Assembly (NCBI GenBank): GCA_000182565.2
Contig: KQ257465.1
Source: Spizellomyces punctatus DAOM BR117
Taxonomy: Eukaryota
Reading direction: 5' to 3' (one strand)
Length of the DNA stretch: 64,000 nucleotides
Shown: in pieces, positions 43,063-51,377 of the stretch
How positions within the stretch are numbered: position 1 is the stretch's first letter
Layout: the number at the start of each line of letters is the position of its first letter
Program-made: the position numbers and the translations under genes
Notes under the pieces: generated by a model
The model's input: only the letters and a program-made list of their open reading frames with translations
Database searches by the model: none
Told to the model about the DNA's origin: nothing

Positions 43063-43194
43063 AATCCGTAGCTCTTTCATATCATCCAAACGGTATCAAT
43101 GCTGCTATTGCTTCGCAAAAAATGTATTCCTTTGAGTTGTTAGCGGGAGCAGCACTTCAGCTTATCATGAACAGTCCCCGAGGCGTCCAACCGC
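43063..43194 (-). pseudogene. Degenerate fragment of the nuclease gene (end of exon 2 fused to part of exon 3)
   Basis: Reads RLDASGT...TTQRNT.F...AI.A.I then LDD.ERAT with frameshifts, matching 48525-48420 and 48290-48262. Confidence 0.7.
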
Positions 43195-43482
43195 CTATGT
43201 TGTTGAGCGTGAGCTTGACTAGTATTATGAATGCCGACACAGGGAGAGAGAGCATTTCTGGTGTACCAAAAGAACGCCTTATCAGGAGCTCTAGGAAGTG
43301 GGGAACACCGCGCTGCCTCCTCTATTGCATGGAATTGGTTCCATGCAATACTTTGGTACATACAGCATACCAGCCAGGTGAAACTGCCGATTCGTTGACA
43401 CGTTATGCCTACGCATAAGGTGCGCCCATGATCCAACAGCAATGGTCCCTCTCTAACTGTGTTTTCGGATCAAAGGACATTG
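43195..43482 (-). repeat. Structured intron family, copy A (donor end lost)
   Basis: Aligns with copies B and C; retains the CTCAC branch site and TAG acceptor at 43195. Confidence 0.8.
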
Positions 43483-43544
43483 TACTTGTTGGAAGGAGCA
43501 TCCGAGAAGATCGCTTGAGTTACTAAATCTCGTATTCCCGTCGT

Positions 43545-43873
43545 CTATATGAGCAGGCAGAGATATGGCGCGAGTTTGACCAGCATTATGGAAACTGATA
43601 CAGAGAGAGAGAGAGCACTTTCTGATGCACCAAAAGAACGCCTCTTCAGGGGTTCTAGGATGTGGGGAAACCTCGCTGCATCCTCTATACATGGAACCAA
43701 TTCCATGTATACTGGCGCCCCAGCATACCAGCCAGCACAAGCCTAGCGGGCACCGCGGACCGAGCTTGACACGTTATGCACATGCATAAGGTGCGCCCAC
43801 TCCAACAGCAATGGTCTCTCTCTCCCTGTGTGAGTATCGGATCCAGGGATACTGAAGCAAACCCCCGCCTTAC
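43545..43873 (-). repeat. Structured intron family, copy B (329 nt)
   Basis: Starts GTAAGGCGGGGGTTTG, ends CATATAG; internal hairpins shared with the other copies. Confidence 0.85.
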
Positions 43874-43952
43874 CGGTCAACTCAACAGCGAGGAACGATG
43901 GCGACAAGAGAAAGTGGGCGACGCGCGGTGGGTAAAGAGATTTGAGGTATGA

Positions 43953-44322
43953 CTACATGCAGAGAAACAGCGTGAGTTTGACCAGTATTACGTATACTGA
44001 CACAGAGCGAGAGAGAGAGCATTCTCTGGTGCACCAAAAGAACGCCTTATCAGGGGCTCTAGGAAGTGGGGAACACCGCGCTGCAACCTCTATTGGATGG
44101 AATTGGTTCCATGCAATACTTTGGTACCTCCAGAATACCGGCCAGCACAATGCTAGCGGGCAGCCGCCGACTGAGCACGAACAGGGCAATCTGGAACTGC
44201 CGAGTTCGCTTGACACGTTATGCATATGCATAAGGCGCGCCCAAAATCAAACAGCAATGGTCTCTCTCTCTCTGTGTGTGTTTGTATCGGATCCAAGCAT
44301 ACTGAAGCAAACCCCGCCTTAC
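43953..44322 (-). repeat. Structured intron family, copy C (370 nt)
   Basis: GTAAGGCGGGGTTTG...CAAACTCACGC...CATGTAG. Confidence 0.85.
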
Positions 44323-44381
44323 CGGTCAACTCATACAGCGAAGGGACGATGGCGCGGTAGGTAAAGAGATTTGAGGTATGA

Positions 44382-44743
44382 CTACATGCAGAAAAAAACA
44401 GCGTGAGTTTGACCAGTATCAATGCGCACGGTGAGAGAGAGAGAGCACATCTCTTGAATTACAGAAGAACCGCCTTTTCAGGGGGCCTAGGATGTGGGGA
44501 GGTTCACCGCGAGTGCATCCTGTATCCACGGAACGAATTCCATGGATACTCTGCGACCAGAGAACACCGGCCAGCATAGGCTAGCGAGCGCTGGGGACTA
44601 AGCACATTGCCGGGCAATATGAAACTGCCGAGGTTCGCTTGACGCGTTATGCATAGGCATAAGGCTCGCTTGACCTTCAGGTAATGGTCTCTCTCTCTCT
44701 GCGTGTACCAGATCCAAGAACACTAGAGCAAACTCCGCCTTAC
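44382..44743 (-). repeat. Structured intron family, copy D (362 nt), near-identical to copy E
   Basis: GTAAGGCGGAGTTTG...CAAACTCACGC...CATGTAG. Confidence 0.85.
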
Positions 44744-44817
44744 CTTAATCGTGCAGCGATGTGACGATGGCCAGGAAATCGGAAAGAGATGCTGGAGGGG
44801 AAAAAGCAAGAGACGCG

Positions 44818-45215
44818 CTTTTATAACCCACGCGCGCAAGGGGTAGAAGTTCGGACACGTGAGACTCTGCTCCGTCCGATGACACCCAACACTTGTTTTT
44901 GCATATACTCGGCTGTGATAAATATATTCCAAATTGACAATCCAGAAATGAATGGACTGCATGGCAGCAGAGAGGAATCAACCAAAACACCCACTGGACA
45001 ATGTGCAGAGAAGCTCTGCTCACTGCGAATGATGCCAAAAAACACAACACACAACGTCCACTAGACAAATGTGCAGAGAAGCTCTGCTCAAAAGTCGAAT
45101 GGTGCCAAATAAATGCAACACACTACACCCGCTCGATAATTTGCAGAGAAACTCTGCTTATAGTCGAATGATGCCGATACCGCAGGCTGGACCATGTGCA
45201 GAGAAACTCTGCTCC
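44818..45215. promoter_or_regulatory. Putative divergent promoter: minus-strand TATAAAAG plus four GCAGAG-AAR-CTCTGC palindromic repeats
   Basis: TATA at 44818-44825 (minus); palindromes at 45005, 45073, 45143 and 45198 in units of about 55-70 bp; homologous block at 49610-49830. Confidence 0.5.
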
Positions 45216-45482
45216 CAGTTCAGCGCAATTTGACCACGTTCATGTTTGCGAATGATGCTGAAGAAGTGTGCACACGAATATTGTAAACAAAGTAGAATCA
45301 GTTTGACAGCAAGCCATATGCATGTCCAACCACATCTCCGCTATCAAACCCCCTCGGATGTTCTCAAGCCCCTTGGGCTTGGGATGGATGATGATCGCCG
45401 ATATAGCACCCCGTAAATCTACCAACTATTTAGGCTTCCGTCTGGCTGAGAGGAACTCTCAACCATTGCAGTAATAGCAGTA

Positions 45483-46475
45483 ATGAATTTCCACCTATTC
45501 TACGAGGAAGACGGCTGTGAAAATGGTTTTGTTTGCCGCTCCGACGGCAACATTTTAGTAGCCACAAACGACAACGAAATAACAATTACCCTGGGAGAAG
45601 AAAAGCCTCCTAACCTAGGCCCCTCATCCAGCATTCATGATTTGGTCGCAGAGAAACTCTGCGACCAACCAACCAAAAGAACTGCCAAGGAGATTGAAGA
45701 GGATCTTGACGCCAGGAGGAGAGAACTGACCATCGCTCGCGAACAGCGTGATTTTGGGAACGCAAAATTCCTTCACTTCGAAAAAATCCCGCAGTTGCAA
45801 GAGGAACTCTTGCAAGTTCTTGGGACGAATAGGACGGAAGATCGCAGAGAACCCTCTGCGCCAGTCCTTTCAGCCGAGGAGGACTTTATTGCCCTGCCCA
45901 GCGACGATGAAGAAGTAAATTTCTCGTGCGCAAAAAAGGCGAAACGTTACTGGGCTGTGCCCGCGAAGAAAGCCAGAGTGGAGAAAATGAGCGTCGACAA
46001 CGAGGATCTTAGGATCCAGCTCTCGTCAGCAGGGACCAGCTCACAGCATGCTCTCGAGGCGGTTCAGCAAAGAAAGCCGAGAAAGGGAACCCGGGACCGT
46101 TACCACTGTAAAGTCGATCTGTACATCAACGGCAAACTGTGGAAACGCGATTGTGTTTTTGTGATCGTTACCAAGCAGGGCTCAGAAAGATCCACGGTCT
46201 CTGTTCAATACGATCTGTCTGAAGAGCTTCCTCTTCAAACAACACGGCCCAGATACATCATTTACCATGACAGGACGTATATATCGTTCGACGATACCCG
46301 TCCTCCCCACGCAATCACCTTCAGCAGTGCTACCGGGTTCTTTGACTGGTACCACAATGAAGATTTTCGCGGCTTTGCATTCCAGTACGCGGGCAACATC
46401 AATGAGATACTCATTGCTGACGTGGAAGGCAAAGATTCGTTGGCAATAATGTATGAGGCCCTACACCGGCTGTGA
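45483..46475 (+). CDS. Intronless 330-aa island partner protein (coiled coil, basic NLS-like patch, beta-rich C-terminal domain)
   Basis: Intact ORF with a diverged, scrambled paralog at 49982-50880. Segment ELTIAREQRDFGNAKFLHFEKIPQLQEEL resembles a ClpB/Hsp104 M-domain or UVR-type helix; basic patch KKAKR...KKAR. Confidence 0.8.
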   Translation: MNFHLFYEEDGCENGFVCRSDGNILVATNDNEITITLGEEKPPNLGPSSSIHDLVAEKLCDQPTKRTAKEIEEDLDARRRELTIAREQRDFGNAKFLHFEKIPQLQEELLQVLGTNRTEDRREPSAPVLSAEEDFIALPSDDEEVNFSCAKKAKRYWAVPAKKARVEKMSVDNEDLRIQLSSAGTSSQHALEAVQQRKPRKGTRDRYHCKVDLYINGKLWKRDCVFVIVTKQGSERSTVSVQYDLSEELPLQTTRPRYIIYHDRTYISFDDTRPPHAITFSSATGFFDWYHNEDFRGFAFQYAGNINEILIADVEGKDSLAIMYEALHRL

Positions 46476-46729
46476 TCGGAGAGTATCTCTCCGTGGAAGC
46501 AGATGGCAGGCAAGTAACGATCATATGCAACATCAATGAGTTCCTCATTGTGATGCAACAGACTAGGTGATATACCTCGGTTGACTTGCAAGAAATATGC
46601 TCTCAGTGCAAAAGAATGATTGCAAGAAGATAGGATATGTAATGTAAAATAAAACAACAATCTTTTGCGACACCGTCTCTTGAGTTTACAAAGCACGCTA
46701 TTCGGAAGAGAATCTCTTCCGGACAGGAG

Positions 46730-49468
46730 CTAACGGACCTTCTTCTTTGGTGTAGCACCAGCGAGCGGTGCTGACGCGCGAGACCAGGTTTTAGGTCGAT
46801 CTGTGCTGTTCTTCACCAGAGGTCGCGGCTTTACGCCATGAGCACCGCCTCTGGACCAAATGCTGGCCCTTCGCTGCTTCTTGCCGAATGTAGATACAAG
46901 ACGGCGTGCAGCTGTTTGTAAATCTGCCTGTAAGGATGCAGCATTTCCGGCGAGGGCCTACAGACTATGCATAAGCCACGCTGTTGCAGCAAGCACAGAA
47001 ATCGCCAACAGTACCTCAAAGAGCAAAAAGTTCTCAGCCATGTCCAAGATGGAGAGGATCTCTCCATTCATGCCTGCAGAATCAACCGCGGCCCACTCTG
47101 CAAATGCGTAGAGCTCATCGCATACAACGAACATGCAGAAAAAGCGAACGGTGTAGTCTCGGATAACGTGGAATGGTACAGCAATCTGAGCAAATCCGTG
47201 TTTGAGCTCCTTGGACGGCGCGATGTTCTGTGCTTCCAGATGCACACACGTCTTCTTGACCAAGGATCGAATTTGTGCTATTGCACACTATCGAAAGTTC
47301 AAATGTCAGAGATAACTATTTAGGCTTCCATTTGGCTGAGAGGAACTCTCAACCATTGCAGTAATAGCAGTGATGAACTTCGACAGATGCCCCAAAGAGA
47401 TTCTCTTTGGGGTGTCCGACATTGAATAATGAAAGTAAAACTTGATAGTACCTTGGTCGCCGCAATGAAGTCTCCATCACGTTTGTCACGGGAAGATTTG
47501 TAGCCGAAATTCTCACCCACCCCAATTTCATCAGTACCCAGAAAGTAGTCGAAATCAACCTTCTTTCCGCCGCTGGTAGTGGATTGTCGTCTTTTCTTGT
47601 CCTCGTCATCGGCGCGCGAACATCCTTCACCACTGGCGAGAGCAGGTGAGCACAGTCAGTATCGATGATATGTCAATTGCGGTGTCATTACTTACTAACG
47701 TACTCCTGCGTTCGGCAATTTGGCAAAAGGGACAACATAGTAGATGTCAATGGTCCTCTCCGTGGGGTTCTGTGGACAGTTCGCAATGTCGGCGCTGAGG
47801 TAGCAGCAGGGTTAATGGCATCAAAGGTGAGAGAAGCTCTCACTGAAACTGAGATACCATTCAACCAATTTTCTGCAGATCCAGATAGTCATCTCGTCGT
47901 CCTTATCCATCTGCCTGGCGTCATTTTCCAACTTGCTCCAAATCTCACGAGTTTCATTGCACTCTTCAGCGGCAGAATCCTCCGATGTTTGAGATGTATG
48001 GTCTTCGTCGTCTTCAGAGAGTATCCTCTCTGTGAGGTTCCGAAGAGACCGCTTCAGTAAGTCAATGAGACCTGCAGTACCATGGACCATTATGGTTCTC
48101 GCGAGAACAGAGACATCTCTGTTCAGCTCATGACATTCCAGGAGTGTTCGCATCACTGACAACAGCGCCACAGCTGAGGAACTCAGCTTTGCACTAGCGC
48201 GATTCATGATCCGCTCGAATTGACTCACAAGCTGCTGGTGGGTGGTGTAGTCGACAAATTCCGTAGCTCTTTCATTATCATCCAAAGGGTAATCGGGGTC
48301 ATGATCTCGTAAGTCCAGCGCTGACCAGAAGAGAGTACTTACAACTTAAGATTAGACAATGAAGTAATCTTAGGGAAACAGTTTGCAAGTACCTTGTTGC
48401 TTTATGCTCCTTTCGAAAGTTGATCATTGCCGATATCGCCTTCTCAAAAACTGTATTCATCTGCGTTGTAGGTAGTGGGGGTGGTACTTCCACTTCATCA
48501 CGACAAGTGCCCGAGGCGTCCAATCGCAGTGGTCCATGAAGAGCGTTCTCTTCATGTTCGTCCCCCAACTTCCTCTTCAGAAAAGTACCGGACGCGTTCA
48601 AACGCAGTGTTTCATGAAGAGCGTTCTCTTCATGCTCTTTCTCCAACTCTATCTTCTGATATGTACCCAAGGCGTCCATACGCAGTGGTTCATGAAGAGA
48701 GTTCTCTTCGCGTTCTTCGTCGAAGGTCCTCTGCGGATGCGCATGGGCGATATGGACATGTTCATTTGAGCCGCTGACGTTGTTGATGAATTTACCGCGA
48801 CTATGTATGCGATAAGTGGTCATGTCGCGTTTTTTAAGCGTCCGCTGAAGGGACTTATCTAGAGATCTGCAGTATGCCTGCGTGCAGAGAAACAGCGTGA
48901 GTTTGACCAGTATCAATGCGCACGGTGAGAGAGAGAGAGCACATCTCTTAGATGACAGAAGAACCGCCTTTTCAGGGGGCCTAGGATGTGGGGAGGTTCA
49001 CCGCGAGTGCATCCTGTATCCACGGAACGAATTCCATGGATACTCTGCGATCAGAGAACACCGGCCAGCACAAGGCTAGCGAGCGCTGGGGACGAAGCGC
49101 ATTGCCGGGCAATATGAAACTGCCGGGGTTAGCTTGACGCGTTATGCATGGGCATAAGGCGCGCTTGGTCTACAGATAATGGTCTCTCTCTCTCTGTGCG
49201 TGTATCAGATCCAAGAACACTAGAGCAAACCCCGCCTTACCGGATCAATAATCAGTCGTGCAGCTCTCTCTCGTAAATCTTTGGGAAGAGAATCCTCTTC
49301 CGCGAAGTTCTTGAGTATCTCAAGGACGTCAGAGACAGTTGTTCGGTTCGTAGGAGGAAGTGGGCAATCCAGGAAGAGCGCTTGCACAACAGATTTTGCA
49401 CTCCAGTCGCGTAAGTCGTTAGCGTGAAAGTATTCTTTCAAAAATTCCCGTTGAATTGCGCGGGACAT
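46730..49468 (-). CDS. 7-exon, 657-aa putative PD-(D/E)xK (CR-REase-like) nuclease
   Basis: Exons 49468-49241, 48877-48393, 48337-47858, 47794-47696, 47632-47452, 47287-47015 and 46957-46730 splice in phase through GT-AG introns with no internal stop. Motifs ALDL, TERTIDIYYVVPF, YGEGCSRAD, GKKVDF...EIGVGE...DKRDGD and a C-terminal TPKKKVR. Confidence 0.8.
48500..48725 (-). repeat. Three tandem 78-bp (26-aa) coding repeats in nuclease exon 2
   Basis: EExEENxLHxxLRxxAxGT unit three times; each carries a GAAGAG-N4-CTCTTC palindrome (48535, 48613, 48691). Confidence 0.9.
48878..49240 (-). repeat. Structured intron family, copy E (363 nt), the first coding-region intron of the nuclease gene
   Basis: Removal joins IIDP to AYCRS in phase 0, which supports the repeat being a spliced intron. 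Confidence 0.9.
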
Positions 49469-49488
49469 GGGCTAACGGAGATATGTGA

Positions 49489-49576
49489 CTACACGCAGAG
49501 ATAGAGCGTGAGTTTGACCAGCATTTGGCAGAGAGAGATTCTCTCTCTGTGTGTGTGTAGGAAAACCCTGCCTTAC
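49489..49576 (-). repeat. Structured intron family, short copy F (88 nt) in the nuclease 5' UTR
   Basis: Same GTAAGGC start and CAAACTCACGC...GTAG end; the ~270-nt middle is replaced by a 3-nt loop in CAGAGAGAG-AAT-CTCTCTCTG. Confidence 0.8.
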
Positions 49577-49981
49577 CTCCACTACATGCAGCGAAGCGAC
49601 GATGGTGGAGGTTATGACCTACGCGCGTAAGGGGTAAGTTCGGACACGTGAGACTCCGCTCCGTCCGATGACACCCCAACACATGTTTTGCATAACCAAG
49701 TTGACAATCTAGATATAAATGCAGAGTTTCTCTGCATATGGTCCAGCTTGCGGTATTGGCATCATTCAACTGTGAGCAGAGCTTCTCTGCGCATTGTCCA
49801 GCGGGTGGGTGTTGTGTGTAGCATTTATTTGCCGTCATTGGACTGTACAGTACAGTACAACTATATCGACTATTTCATCGGACAGATAACGGGAACATAG
49901 CAGAAACACTTGTCCGATCAAAAACTCGATACTGGTTGTAATGGGGAGTACCCCGCTGATGTAACACCCCGTAACTCTACT

Positions 49982-50880
49982 AACTATTTAGGCTTCCATC
50001 TGGTGAGAGGAACTCTCAACCATTGCAGTAAATTTTCATCTCTATTTCGAGAATGAAGGCGTTGTTCTCCCAGCGTGATTGTTACTTCGGTGTCCGTTGT
50101 CGCCACTAAAATGTTGCCGTCTGTGCGGCACACGAATCCGTACAGCCTCGCAACCAAGGCCCTGTACACCGAGTATCGTCGATTTGATCGGAGAGAAACT
50201 CTCGGAAGAAGAATGCCCGCAAGGAAAGCAAACCAAAAGAACTGCAGCGGACATCGAATAGGATCTTCACGCATCATACTGAATAGAGACCGTCGATCTC
50301 TCTGAGCCCTTCTTGGTAACTATCACAAAAACAGAAGCATGTTTCCAGATTTACATGATTGACAACGAATCTTTGCCTTCCACGTCAGCAATGAGTATCT
50401 CATTGATGTCGCCGGGGTACTCCAAGGCAAAGCCGCGAAAATCTACGTTATGATACCAATCTACTGAATGTGATGGCGTGCGGAGGACGGGTATCGTCGA
50501 ACGATATATACGTCCTGTCAGCGTAGGCCCGGTTCAATAATGTATGAGGCGCTACACCGGCTGTGATTGGAGAGTATCTCTCCATGGATTGCAGGCAAGT
50601 AAAGATCATATGCAACATCAATGAGTTCCTCATTGCTGATGCAACAGACTAGGTGGCACGGATATACATCGGTTGACTTGCAAAAAATGTGCTCTCAGTG
50701 AAGTTCCCGAAGTTACGGATCTATTTTGCCGACTTCCCTTAGCTACATTGTTCTATAAATTAGAGGCTGTTCACCTTGGAGACCTGCTGCGGTTATGAGT
50801 ACGACTAGGTGTGAAGATAGGATAGTGAAATGTAAAATAAAGCAATAATCTTCTACACCGGTTCTTGAGTTTCCAAGGCA
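49982..50880 (+). pseudogene. Scrambled pseudogene of the 330-aa partner gene
   Basis: Leader is direct (49982-50030), N-terminal GFVCRTDGNILVAT is inverted (about 50040-50140), EKL...TKRTA is direct (about 50190-50265), C-terminal pieces are inverted (about 50290-50520), and MYEALHRL* plus 3' flank are direct (from 50537). Confidence 0.85.
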
Positions 50881-50914
50881 TGCTATTCGGGAGAGAATCT
50901 CTTCCCGACAGGAT

Positions 50915-51377
50915 CTAACGGACCTTGTTCTTTGGTGTAGCACCTCGCTGCATCCTCTAAACATGGAACCAATTGCAACATACTTTGGCACCCCAGCATA
51001 TCGGCCAGCACAAGGATCGCGGGCACACGAAGAGGGCAATTGGAAACTGCCGAGGTCGCTTGAGGCGTTGTGCAGATGCACAAGGTGCGCCCACTCCAAC
51101 AGCAATGGTCTCCTACAATCTATGTGTGTATCAGATAAGGACACTGAAGCAAACCCCGCCTTACTTCACAAACAGCCAGTCCCGCAGCTTTCTGTCGCCG
51201 CTCTATTGAAAGAGAGGTCGCTTTCTCATGGTCCTTGAGCACCTCAAGGATTTCTGGGACACTGTAGATCTTGAGAGGACCCTCCGATAACATCACTTTA
51301 GCTACAGTTCTCATATCCCAGGCGTCTAAATGAGCAGTACAAAAGTAGTCTTTTAGAAAGCTGTTAAGGGATGACAT
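50915..51377 (-). pseudogene. Internally deleted nuclease paralog (exon 1, half of intron copy G, and the last few codons)
   Basis: MSSLNSFLKDYF...W..R.VA..L is paralogous to MSRAIQREFLKEYF...W..K.VV..L. Intron G starts at 51164 and is fused at an ACC microhomology (50942-50944) to ...ATPKNKVR*. Confidence 0.8.

Follow-up and report, generated by a model that had tools for sequence, protein, structure and literature searches.

The stretch of DNA analysed here (the window) is 64,000 nucleotides (nt) of contig KQ257465.1, assembly GCA_000182565.2, from the chytrid Spizellomyces punctatus DAOM BR117. Between 43.2 and 51.2 kb it holds three tandem paralogues, I to III, of an orphan gene, and within this one cluster of about 8 kb lie 7/7 copies, A to G, of a long intron whose RNA is predicted to fold into a closed structure. 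An earlier note, made from the letters of the window alone, had drawn attention to copy E as a repeated intron with a conserved fold and a bulged branch-point A. We find that the structure of this intron is conserved beyond its sequence, and we consider below what might account for the fold and for the spread of the copies.

The host gene and the intron copies

Copy E interrupts the coding region of paralogue II, for which a protein, P0001, has been annotated. The parts of the gene that bear on the intron are the following.

48338-48392, minus strand: ordinary intron of the same gene as E, 55 nt
48393-48877, minus strand: coding exon 3' of E; holds three 78-nt tandem repeats and is followed by the ordinary 55-nt intron
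48878-49240, minus strand: copy E, 363 nt, GT..AG intron separating coding exons 2 and 3 of the gene annotated for P0001
49241-49468, minus strand: coding exon 5' of E, 76 aa, beginning with ATG

That 48878-49240 is an intron, as the earlier note had it, agrees with the public gene model. The public protein P0001 (657 aa), aligned back to the window, has exons from 49468 down to 46733 and carries exactly the IIDP|AYCRSL junction, and it is because the gene model carries that junction that 48878 and 49240 can be taken as the exact intron borders. The predicted removal of intron E rests on this model. Read on the minus strand from 49240 to 48878, E opens with GTAAGG and closes with CTCACGCTGTTTCTCTGCACGCAG; a longer reading of the ends gives GTAAGGCGGGGTTTGC at the start and GGTCAAACTCACGCTGTTTCTCTGCACGCAG at the end. 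The exon junction is in frame and of phase 0, the last full codon of ..LIIDP being joined to AYCRSLDK.., from which the open reading frame (ORF) 3' of E runs 192 codons. At the level of sequence E has what is looked for in a U2-type spliceosomal intron: GTAAGG at the donor, CUCAC 20 nt before the CAG, and a phase-0 junction as in P0001.

At 363 nt, E is about six times as long as the neighbouring introns. The ordinary intron of its own gene has 55 nt and that of a neighbouring chitin synthase gene about 64 nt, so that in 2/2 of the other introns examined the view that introns here are otherwise far shorter held good. Along 98% of its length the chitin synthase ORF shows 100% identity to an NCBI protein of Spizellomyces punctatus. 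The gene that carries E has few relatives: a profile of the upstream exon, run against 1.84 billion protein representatives, gave two matches at E <= 0.001, P0001 and an unrelated repeat protein. Exon 3 as a protein query (105-336 aa) gave 0 matches, as did an antisense ORF spanning copy C, and none of seven local ORFs had a Pfam match above the cut-offs. The three 78-nt tandem repeats of the exon 3' of E, at 48502-48735, are 77-79% identical to the reference copy and encode a 26-aa repeat within the orphan protein.

Compared with the whole window by BLAST, E gave eight pieces at seven places, all on the minus strand, from 43206 to 51164. A profile of the aligned copies found no further place below E = 1 in the other approximately 56 kb of this gene-dense window; its plus-strand matches fall within the copies, because these are self-complementary. 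The remaining copies and the sequences next to them are as follows.

43095-43194, minus strand: remnant of exon 3 after copy A, about 75% identical to 48423-48527
43195-43461, minus strand: copy A, 5'-truncated, at the coding-region position of the degenerate paralogue I
43546-43873, minus strand: copy B, 328 nt, third tandem copy; putative branch A changed to G (CUCGC)
43953-44322, minus strand: copy C, 370 nt, second tandem copy
44323-44381, minus strand: D-C spacer, 59 nt, the sequence of which recurs after C
44382-44743, minus strand: copy D, 362 nt, first of the three tandem copies; follows a duplicated promoter-like stretch in the degenerate paralogue I
49489-49576, minus strand: copy F, an 88-nt mini version in the 5' untranslated region (5'UTR), just upstream of the ATG at 49468
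50945-51164, minus strand: copy G, truncated on the 3' side; in paralogue III, at the coding-region position that A has in paralogue I
51165-51377, minus strand: paralogue III exon, adjoining copy G

Pairwise identity among the copies ranges from 54 to 94%. The mini copy F retains both ends and the GA/CU repeats and has had its entire central domain deleted. The start exon of paralogue III, 51165-51377, is intact over 71 codons and, similarity to P0001 apart, has no matching protein in the 1.84-billion library; paralogue III is probably unannotated or dead.

Fold of the intron RNA and its conservation

The fold of the intron is closed by pairing between its 5' end and the region of the putative branch site. 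In the minimum free energy (MFE) structure of E the two strands of this closing helix are the following.

49226-49236, minus strand: 5' strand, intron nt 5-15, GGCGGGGUUUG, overlapping +5 and +6 of the 5' splice site
48894-48905, minus strand: 3' strand, CAAACUC-A-CGCU, with the putative branch A bulged at 48898 (intron nt 343)

Folded separately, E, C and B adopt the same closed architecture at MFE: intron nt 5-15 pair with the branch-site region, CAAACUC-x-CGCU, leaving one nucleotide bulged. The pairing of 5' GGCGGGGUUUG with 3' CAAACUC(A)CGCU, with the A of CUCAC bulged, had been proposed in the earlier note and is recovered in the MFE structure of E, and also in C and in D. In E, D and C it is this A that bulges out; in B the A has mutated and the bulged base is a G (CUCGC). 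In E the putative branch A lies 20 nt from the 3' splice site, and across E, D and C the distance is 20-22 nt. Inward of the closing helix come an adjacent helix of 7-8 bp and then a (GA)n/(CU)n helix, likewise foreseen and present in 4/4 full-length copies, and five or six hairpins make up a multi-branched core. Being subterminal, the inverted repeats leave 4 nt outside on the 5' side and 16-20 nt on the 3' side. The MFE values are -139.1 kcal/mol for E, -140.2 for C and -138.6 for B, with z-scores of -4.89, -4.56 and -5.17 against 100 dinucleotide shuffles per copy. These folds are beyond chance, because the z-scores are -4.6 to -5.2 and 0/100 shuffles are as stable in any of the three. Copy B has the best z-score yet has lost the branch A, and is the most palindromic member of the family. 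With 100 nt of flanking sequence on each side, the closing helix is retained in three of four copies, its probability being 1.0 in B, 0.8-0.9 in D and 0.47-0.99 in E; under the same conditions the probability that the branch A is unpaired is 1.0 in E, 0.89 in D and 0.2 in C, which lies in the tandem context.

Does the conservation of this structure go further than that of the sequence? The copies compared are 72-75% identical, E differing from B at 90 of 321 aligned positions and from C at 91 of 358. In a relocation test the observed substitutions were moved to random positions of the same starting base and the resulting pseudo-copies were refolded. The folds of the pseudo-copies, at -106 to -117 kcal/mol, are weaker by 22-32 kcal/mol than those of the real copies, at -139 to -140, and 0/100 attain the energy of the real copy in each of the four comparisons (4/4). 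In a second test the structure was taken from one copy only and read in another, with 2000 permutations under the same null. Broken pairs fall below the null in 6/6 comparisons, the observed value being reached by 0, 6, 92, 8, 0 and 73 of the 2000 permutations. Column identity is 84-92% at paired positions and 61-74% at unpaired ones. Among B, C, D and E, 6/6 variable pairs of the closing rod stay paired, each by a transition to or from G.U, although this count of six is biased by the choice of consensus. A comparison of the two strands also speaks for pairing in the sense RNA: G.U pairs number 13-19 in the sense folds and 4-10 in the antisense folds, a 2-4 fold difference, with at most one A.C 1x1 mismatch per copy in the sense folds, and the sense energy is below the antisense energy in 4/4 full-length copies. 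The proposal that the structure is under selection is supported, because the substitutions between copies of 72-75% identity avoid pair breakage; the depletion of pair-breaking changes, the conservation of paired columns and the sense excess of G.U are all in keeping with it.

Covariation is a separate matter. The five hairpin strings quoted as examples in the earlier note are all present where it had placed them, and its instances of paired change are real. At one position of the CAUGGAA stem, E and D have C-G, B has A-U, and A and C have G-C together with an extra pair; a position of the CCUGA hairpin varies among C-G, G.U and A-U; and the UUAUGC/GCAUAA hairpin is UUGUGC/GCACAA in G. A consensus of 89 pairs, each present in the MFE structure of at least three of the seven copies, has 91.6% of its cells paired and double-sided changes in five pairs (8 cells). 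Its covariation score is reached by 15 of 500 shuffles, a level possible from relatedness alone. RNAalifold, given all seven rows, retained 37 pairs, two of them with double changes. The power of such tests is low here, with three or four effective lineages that also exchange sequence. Covariation by the strict standard is not demonstrable, and what is significant is the conservation of the stems together with a tolerance of wobble changes.

Spread of the copies and origin of the fold

How might so long an intron be spliced, and how did it come to be present seven times? The reading we favour, with a probability of about one half, is that of a long (about 330-370 nt), highly structured and self-zippering spliceosomal intron that has been locally multiplied in three tandem paralogues of a lineage-specific chytrid gene. 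In form it looks like the introner-like elements (ILEs) of fungi, and nothing seen in the window shows it to be mobile. In the pre-mRNA, intron nt 5-25 would form a rod with the branch-site stretch, followed by the (GA)n/(CU)n helix; the rod would enclose the five or six hairpins and fold some 300 nt away, and both splice sites and the branch A would thereby come to lie no more than about 25 nt apart. An intron-definition machinery adapted to lengths of about 60 nt could then take this intron, six times the usual size, for a short one, the branch A being the sole unpaired nucleotide of the proposed closing helix. Selection against pair-breaking changes, acting on the sense RNA, would maintain the fold.

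The path of the spread can be read from the sequences of the copies. Copies A, E and G occupy an equivalent place in the three paralogues, and it was gene duplication that passed the coding-region copy on. Paralogue III lacks an intron in the 5'UTR. Directly before the ATG of paralogues I and II stands an added unit, made up of the intron and E-like exon flanks: about 17-24 nt resemble the end of E's upstream exon and about 17 nt the start of its downstream exon. A segment made up of the intron and a few exon bases was copied to the 5'UTR, as seen in F, and its tandem amplification then gave D, C and B. In paralogue I the unit is tandemly repeated, and the spacers of 59 nt (D-C) and 79 nt (C-B) are homologous. 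Through gene conversion the copies have stayed more alike than their exons. D, in the 5'UTR of gene I, and E, in the coding region of gene II, are 94% identical (340/360). The copies form two groups across position, {D,E} and {A,B,C,G}; A and G, from coding-region sites, share 77-85% identity with B and C, and A and G themselves 54% over a short overlap (96/178). Between paralogues II and III the intron is 73% identical (158/216) and the adjacent exon 59% (125/213), and the exons preceding E and G have 32% amino-acid identity. On the evidence of sequence, the steps of duplication, tandem amplification and conversion are shown, and the copy pattern is one of segmental duplication with gene conversion, in which seamless mobile insertion would be unneeded and is partly argued against.

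Several points weigh against the favoured reading. We infer the transcription, the splicing and the branch point of the whole intron family. The closing helix covers both the branch site and donor positions +5 and +6, and must melt for U1, U6 and U2; it might equally hinder, delay or regulate splicing instead of helping it. In C, which stands in the tandem context, the closing helix is lost when 100-nt flanks are included, and other pairings replace it. Copies B and C keep the fold in the degenerate-looking paralogue I, B without a branch A, and such retention would fit selection on the element itself, or a DNA-level process, better than host splicing. The part of the earlier note's covariation claim that did not stand also belongs here, as the statistical excess of double changes is absent: five double-change pairs among 89 are reached by 43 of 500 shuffles (the 8 cells by 6 of 500), the RNAalifold covariation term for the seven rows is +2.22, which is unfavourable, and in 6/6 of the tests with structure taken from one copy double changes show no excess (680, 395, 1286, 1316, 586 and 1303 of 2000 permutations reach the observed value). 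Finally, the two strands of B differ little in how well they fold (antisense z -4.80), and a transcription-linked C-to-T bias on the coding strand could be an alternative source of the G.U excess.

One rival proposal is that the fold is a by-product of how a quasi-palindromic repeat behaves as DNA, through hairpin or cruciform formation, template switching, hairpin inversion, slippage and gene conversion, the RNA structure being without function. We think this doubtful, and the evidence on an RNA-level or a DNA-level origin of the fold points both ways. In the CAUGGAA hairpin, copies A and C have the loop CCAA where B and G have UUGG; the one is the exact reverse complement of the other, which is the signature of a DNA hairpin flip. 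Copy F arose by a deletion bounded by the (GA)n and (CU)n arms, at a helix base; tandem duplication and conversion are evident; almost the whole of B, as reverse complement, is matched by the family profile (E 3.9e-07); and antisense strands beat their shuffles too, with z from -2.4 to -4.8 (-2.42 in E, -2.57 in C, and B as given above). Template switching, however, yields perfect Watson-Crick pairing, yet the sense folds have their 13-19 G.U pairs and scarcely an A.C mismatch, and the closing rod, with arms about 320 nt apart, varies only by wobble-compatible transitions. Sense z-scores are stronger than antisense in two of three copies, E and C, and barely so in B. A flip keeps Watson-Crick pairs as they were, so that alone it cannot yield C-G, A-U and G-C at one stem position, and we have rejected hairpin inversion as the sole source of the paired changes on that ground; template switching may be another source. 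The earlier note had named inversion as a process that might explain such changes fully; one reverse-complemented loop is what it accounts for. Repeat-induced point mutation (RIP) was also considered as a source of paired transitions and rejected, there being no RIP signature in the window and the host being a chytrid.

A second possibility, which we regard as unlikely, is a true introner-like mobile intron, spread genome-wide, whose fold serves its own propagation and of whose larger family the local copies are a part. Such an intron might move as a stable excised RNA, by reverse splicing or by insertion at breaks, or its inverted terminal repeats might serve DNA transposition. The ILE hallmarks given in PMC3609843 are present, namely canonical signals, extra length and a stable fold, with the 88-nt derivative F as decay, and two positions in the gene, the 5'UTR and the coding region, are occupied. 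Further in its favour, the copies are more alike than their exons and group independently of position, the fold is retained even in a degenerate host, and sister introns of Hypoxylon also often leave the donor G, branch A and acceptor G unpaired (PMC8469720). On the other hand, all of the copies lie in the one paralogous cluster and none in the rest of the window. The flanks of the 5'UTR copies, homologous to E's exon flanks, speak for segmental and not for the seamless spread by which ILEs insert. No clear target-site duplication was seen by eye at six junction pairs, a possible CATGT repeat around F being too short to judge. The main texts of two large surveys of introners, PMC9860276 and PMC12130899, contain neither 'chytrid' nor 'Spizellomyces' (0 occurrences). 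A metagenome scan with the conserved hairpin pattern gave one locus, which shares only the 26-nt pattern and is a chance match.

The boldest form of the mobile-intron idea would make this the first introner-like element of an early-diverging fungus (Chytridiomycota): a mobile intron whose 5' end pairs with the branch site as a built-in mimic of U2, bulging the branch A, whose excised RNA is compact, long-lived and re-inserting, and whose cluster is one nest of a genome-wide family. We consider this decidedly unlikely. It is very improbable that the intron hosts a functional non-coding RNA kept by selection, whether snoRNA-like, a Dicer substrate or a stable intronic RNA, which the earlier note had offered as one explanation. 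The fold is stable and conserved, and the intron is better conserved than the adjacent exon, but no Rfam family matches it at E <= 1 (two weak matches are spurious), a tRNA scan found no tRNA-like gene, and the mini copy F has lost the entire internal domain. A self-splicing, group-II-like ribozyme, with the bulged A acting as in domain VI, is extremely improbable: its one attraction is a bulged A in a helix near the 3' end, whereas GUAAGG..YAG borders and a CUCAC branch motif are typical of the spliceosome, domain V and a 5' GUGYG are defining features of group II introns, no domain V-like element was seen in the folds, and no group II or other Rfam ribozyme model matches.

The block around the copies has its own history. 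Paralogues I and II have in common a promoter-proximal stretch, 44821-44905 and 49612-49694, of 90% identity, part of which (..GTCCGAACTTAC..GCGCGTAG) resembles the 3' end of the intron family; this stretch may be an older, decayed copy of the intron. On the opposite (plus) strand, between paralogues I and II, the frame 45450-46475 is open over 341 codons and gave no match in Pfam. Degenerate pieces of this frame lie between E and G at 49954-50031, 50062-50139 and 50273-50520, in both orientations, and since they recur both ways the block from 43 to 51 kb is a mosaic of segmental duplications and inversions. In the rearranged stretch that stands in place of the 3' part of G, at 50762-50858 on the minus strand, the Rfam model of eukaryotic large-subunit rRNA matches weakly (21.2 bits, E 0.12), short of its gathering score; the sequence looks like a short rDNA-derived fragment at a non-rDNA locus.

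Relation to known structured introns

Why should a repeated intron of this kind be of interest? What the evidence shows is a locally duplicated structured intron in an orphan gene family, a tidy example and no surprise. Repeated self-folding introns are the best living models of the origin of new spliceosomal introns. Those described so far come from ascomycetes, basidiomycetes, algae and other protists, so that a chytrid case would extend their range. With its branch site inside the closing helix, the intron would offer a clean system for asking whether folding helps or regulates the splicing of an over-long intron, and the Spizellomyces chytrid is transformable.

The ILEs of Dothideomycetes were reportedly described by van der Burgt in 2012, and are the subject of Collemare 2013 (PMC3609843) and Collemare 2015 (PMC4457414). 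Like the chytrid intron, these elements have canonical signals, several-fold extra length, a stable fold, related copies and a decay in length, as seen here in F. Unlike them, the chytrid intron has seven copies in one paralogous cluster, with co-duplicated flanks, and its host is not an ascomycete; the likeness is one of description. ILEs are defined in PMC3609843 as stably folded introns of more than usual length that occur in unrelated genes in a high number of copies, and are set apart there from 'same gene duplications' and from low-copy duplicated introns. By distribution the copies in the window fit these latter classes, and by form they fit the ILEs. The first sections of PMC3609843 treat the duplication and low-copy classes as minor and describe no conserved folds for them.

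Symmetrical sister introns of Hypoxylaceae, as presented in PMC8469720, have imperfect terminal inverted repeats of about 45-55 nt, and a hairpin joins donor and acceptor. They have in common with the chytrid intron the end-joining hairpin, an often unpaired branch A, the property of being an intron on the coding strand only, and no Rfam family. The chytrid intron differs in being a plain U2-type intron with a multi-branched core, where the Hypoxylaceae stwintrons are nested, and the Hypoxylaceae copies, unlike those described here, occur at new positions in unrelated genes. The 10-nt Hypoxylaceae palindrome WTTCTAGAAA is absent from all copies, and 0/8 of its one-mismatch matches in the window lie inside one.

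PMC9860276 and PMC12130899, which list introners in Pezizomycotina and basidiomycetes, deal with introners of the transposon type, with terminal inverted repeats and target-site duplications, and the chytrid intron resembles this type in having inverted repeats near both ends. Here, in contrast, the repeats stop short of the ends, and inspection by eye revealed no clear target-site duplication. The literature found for introners together with Spizellomyces punctatus or with chytrids described no such element, and a search of literature text for the intron end motifs gave nothing relevant among the matches listed.

A functional precedent is offered by the zipper introns of yeast, in which the paired segments lie beside the splice signals, whereas the chytrid closing helix itself includes the branch sequence and donor +5/+6. 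Efficient splicing of RPS17B depends on the pairing of a segment close to its 5' splice site with one close to its branch point (PMC2536676). As is proposed for the chytrid intron, long-range pairing in these yeast introns is reported to shorten the effective distance from 5' splice site to branch point (RPS17B; PMC2536676, PMC12350175).

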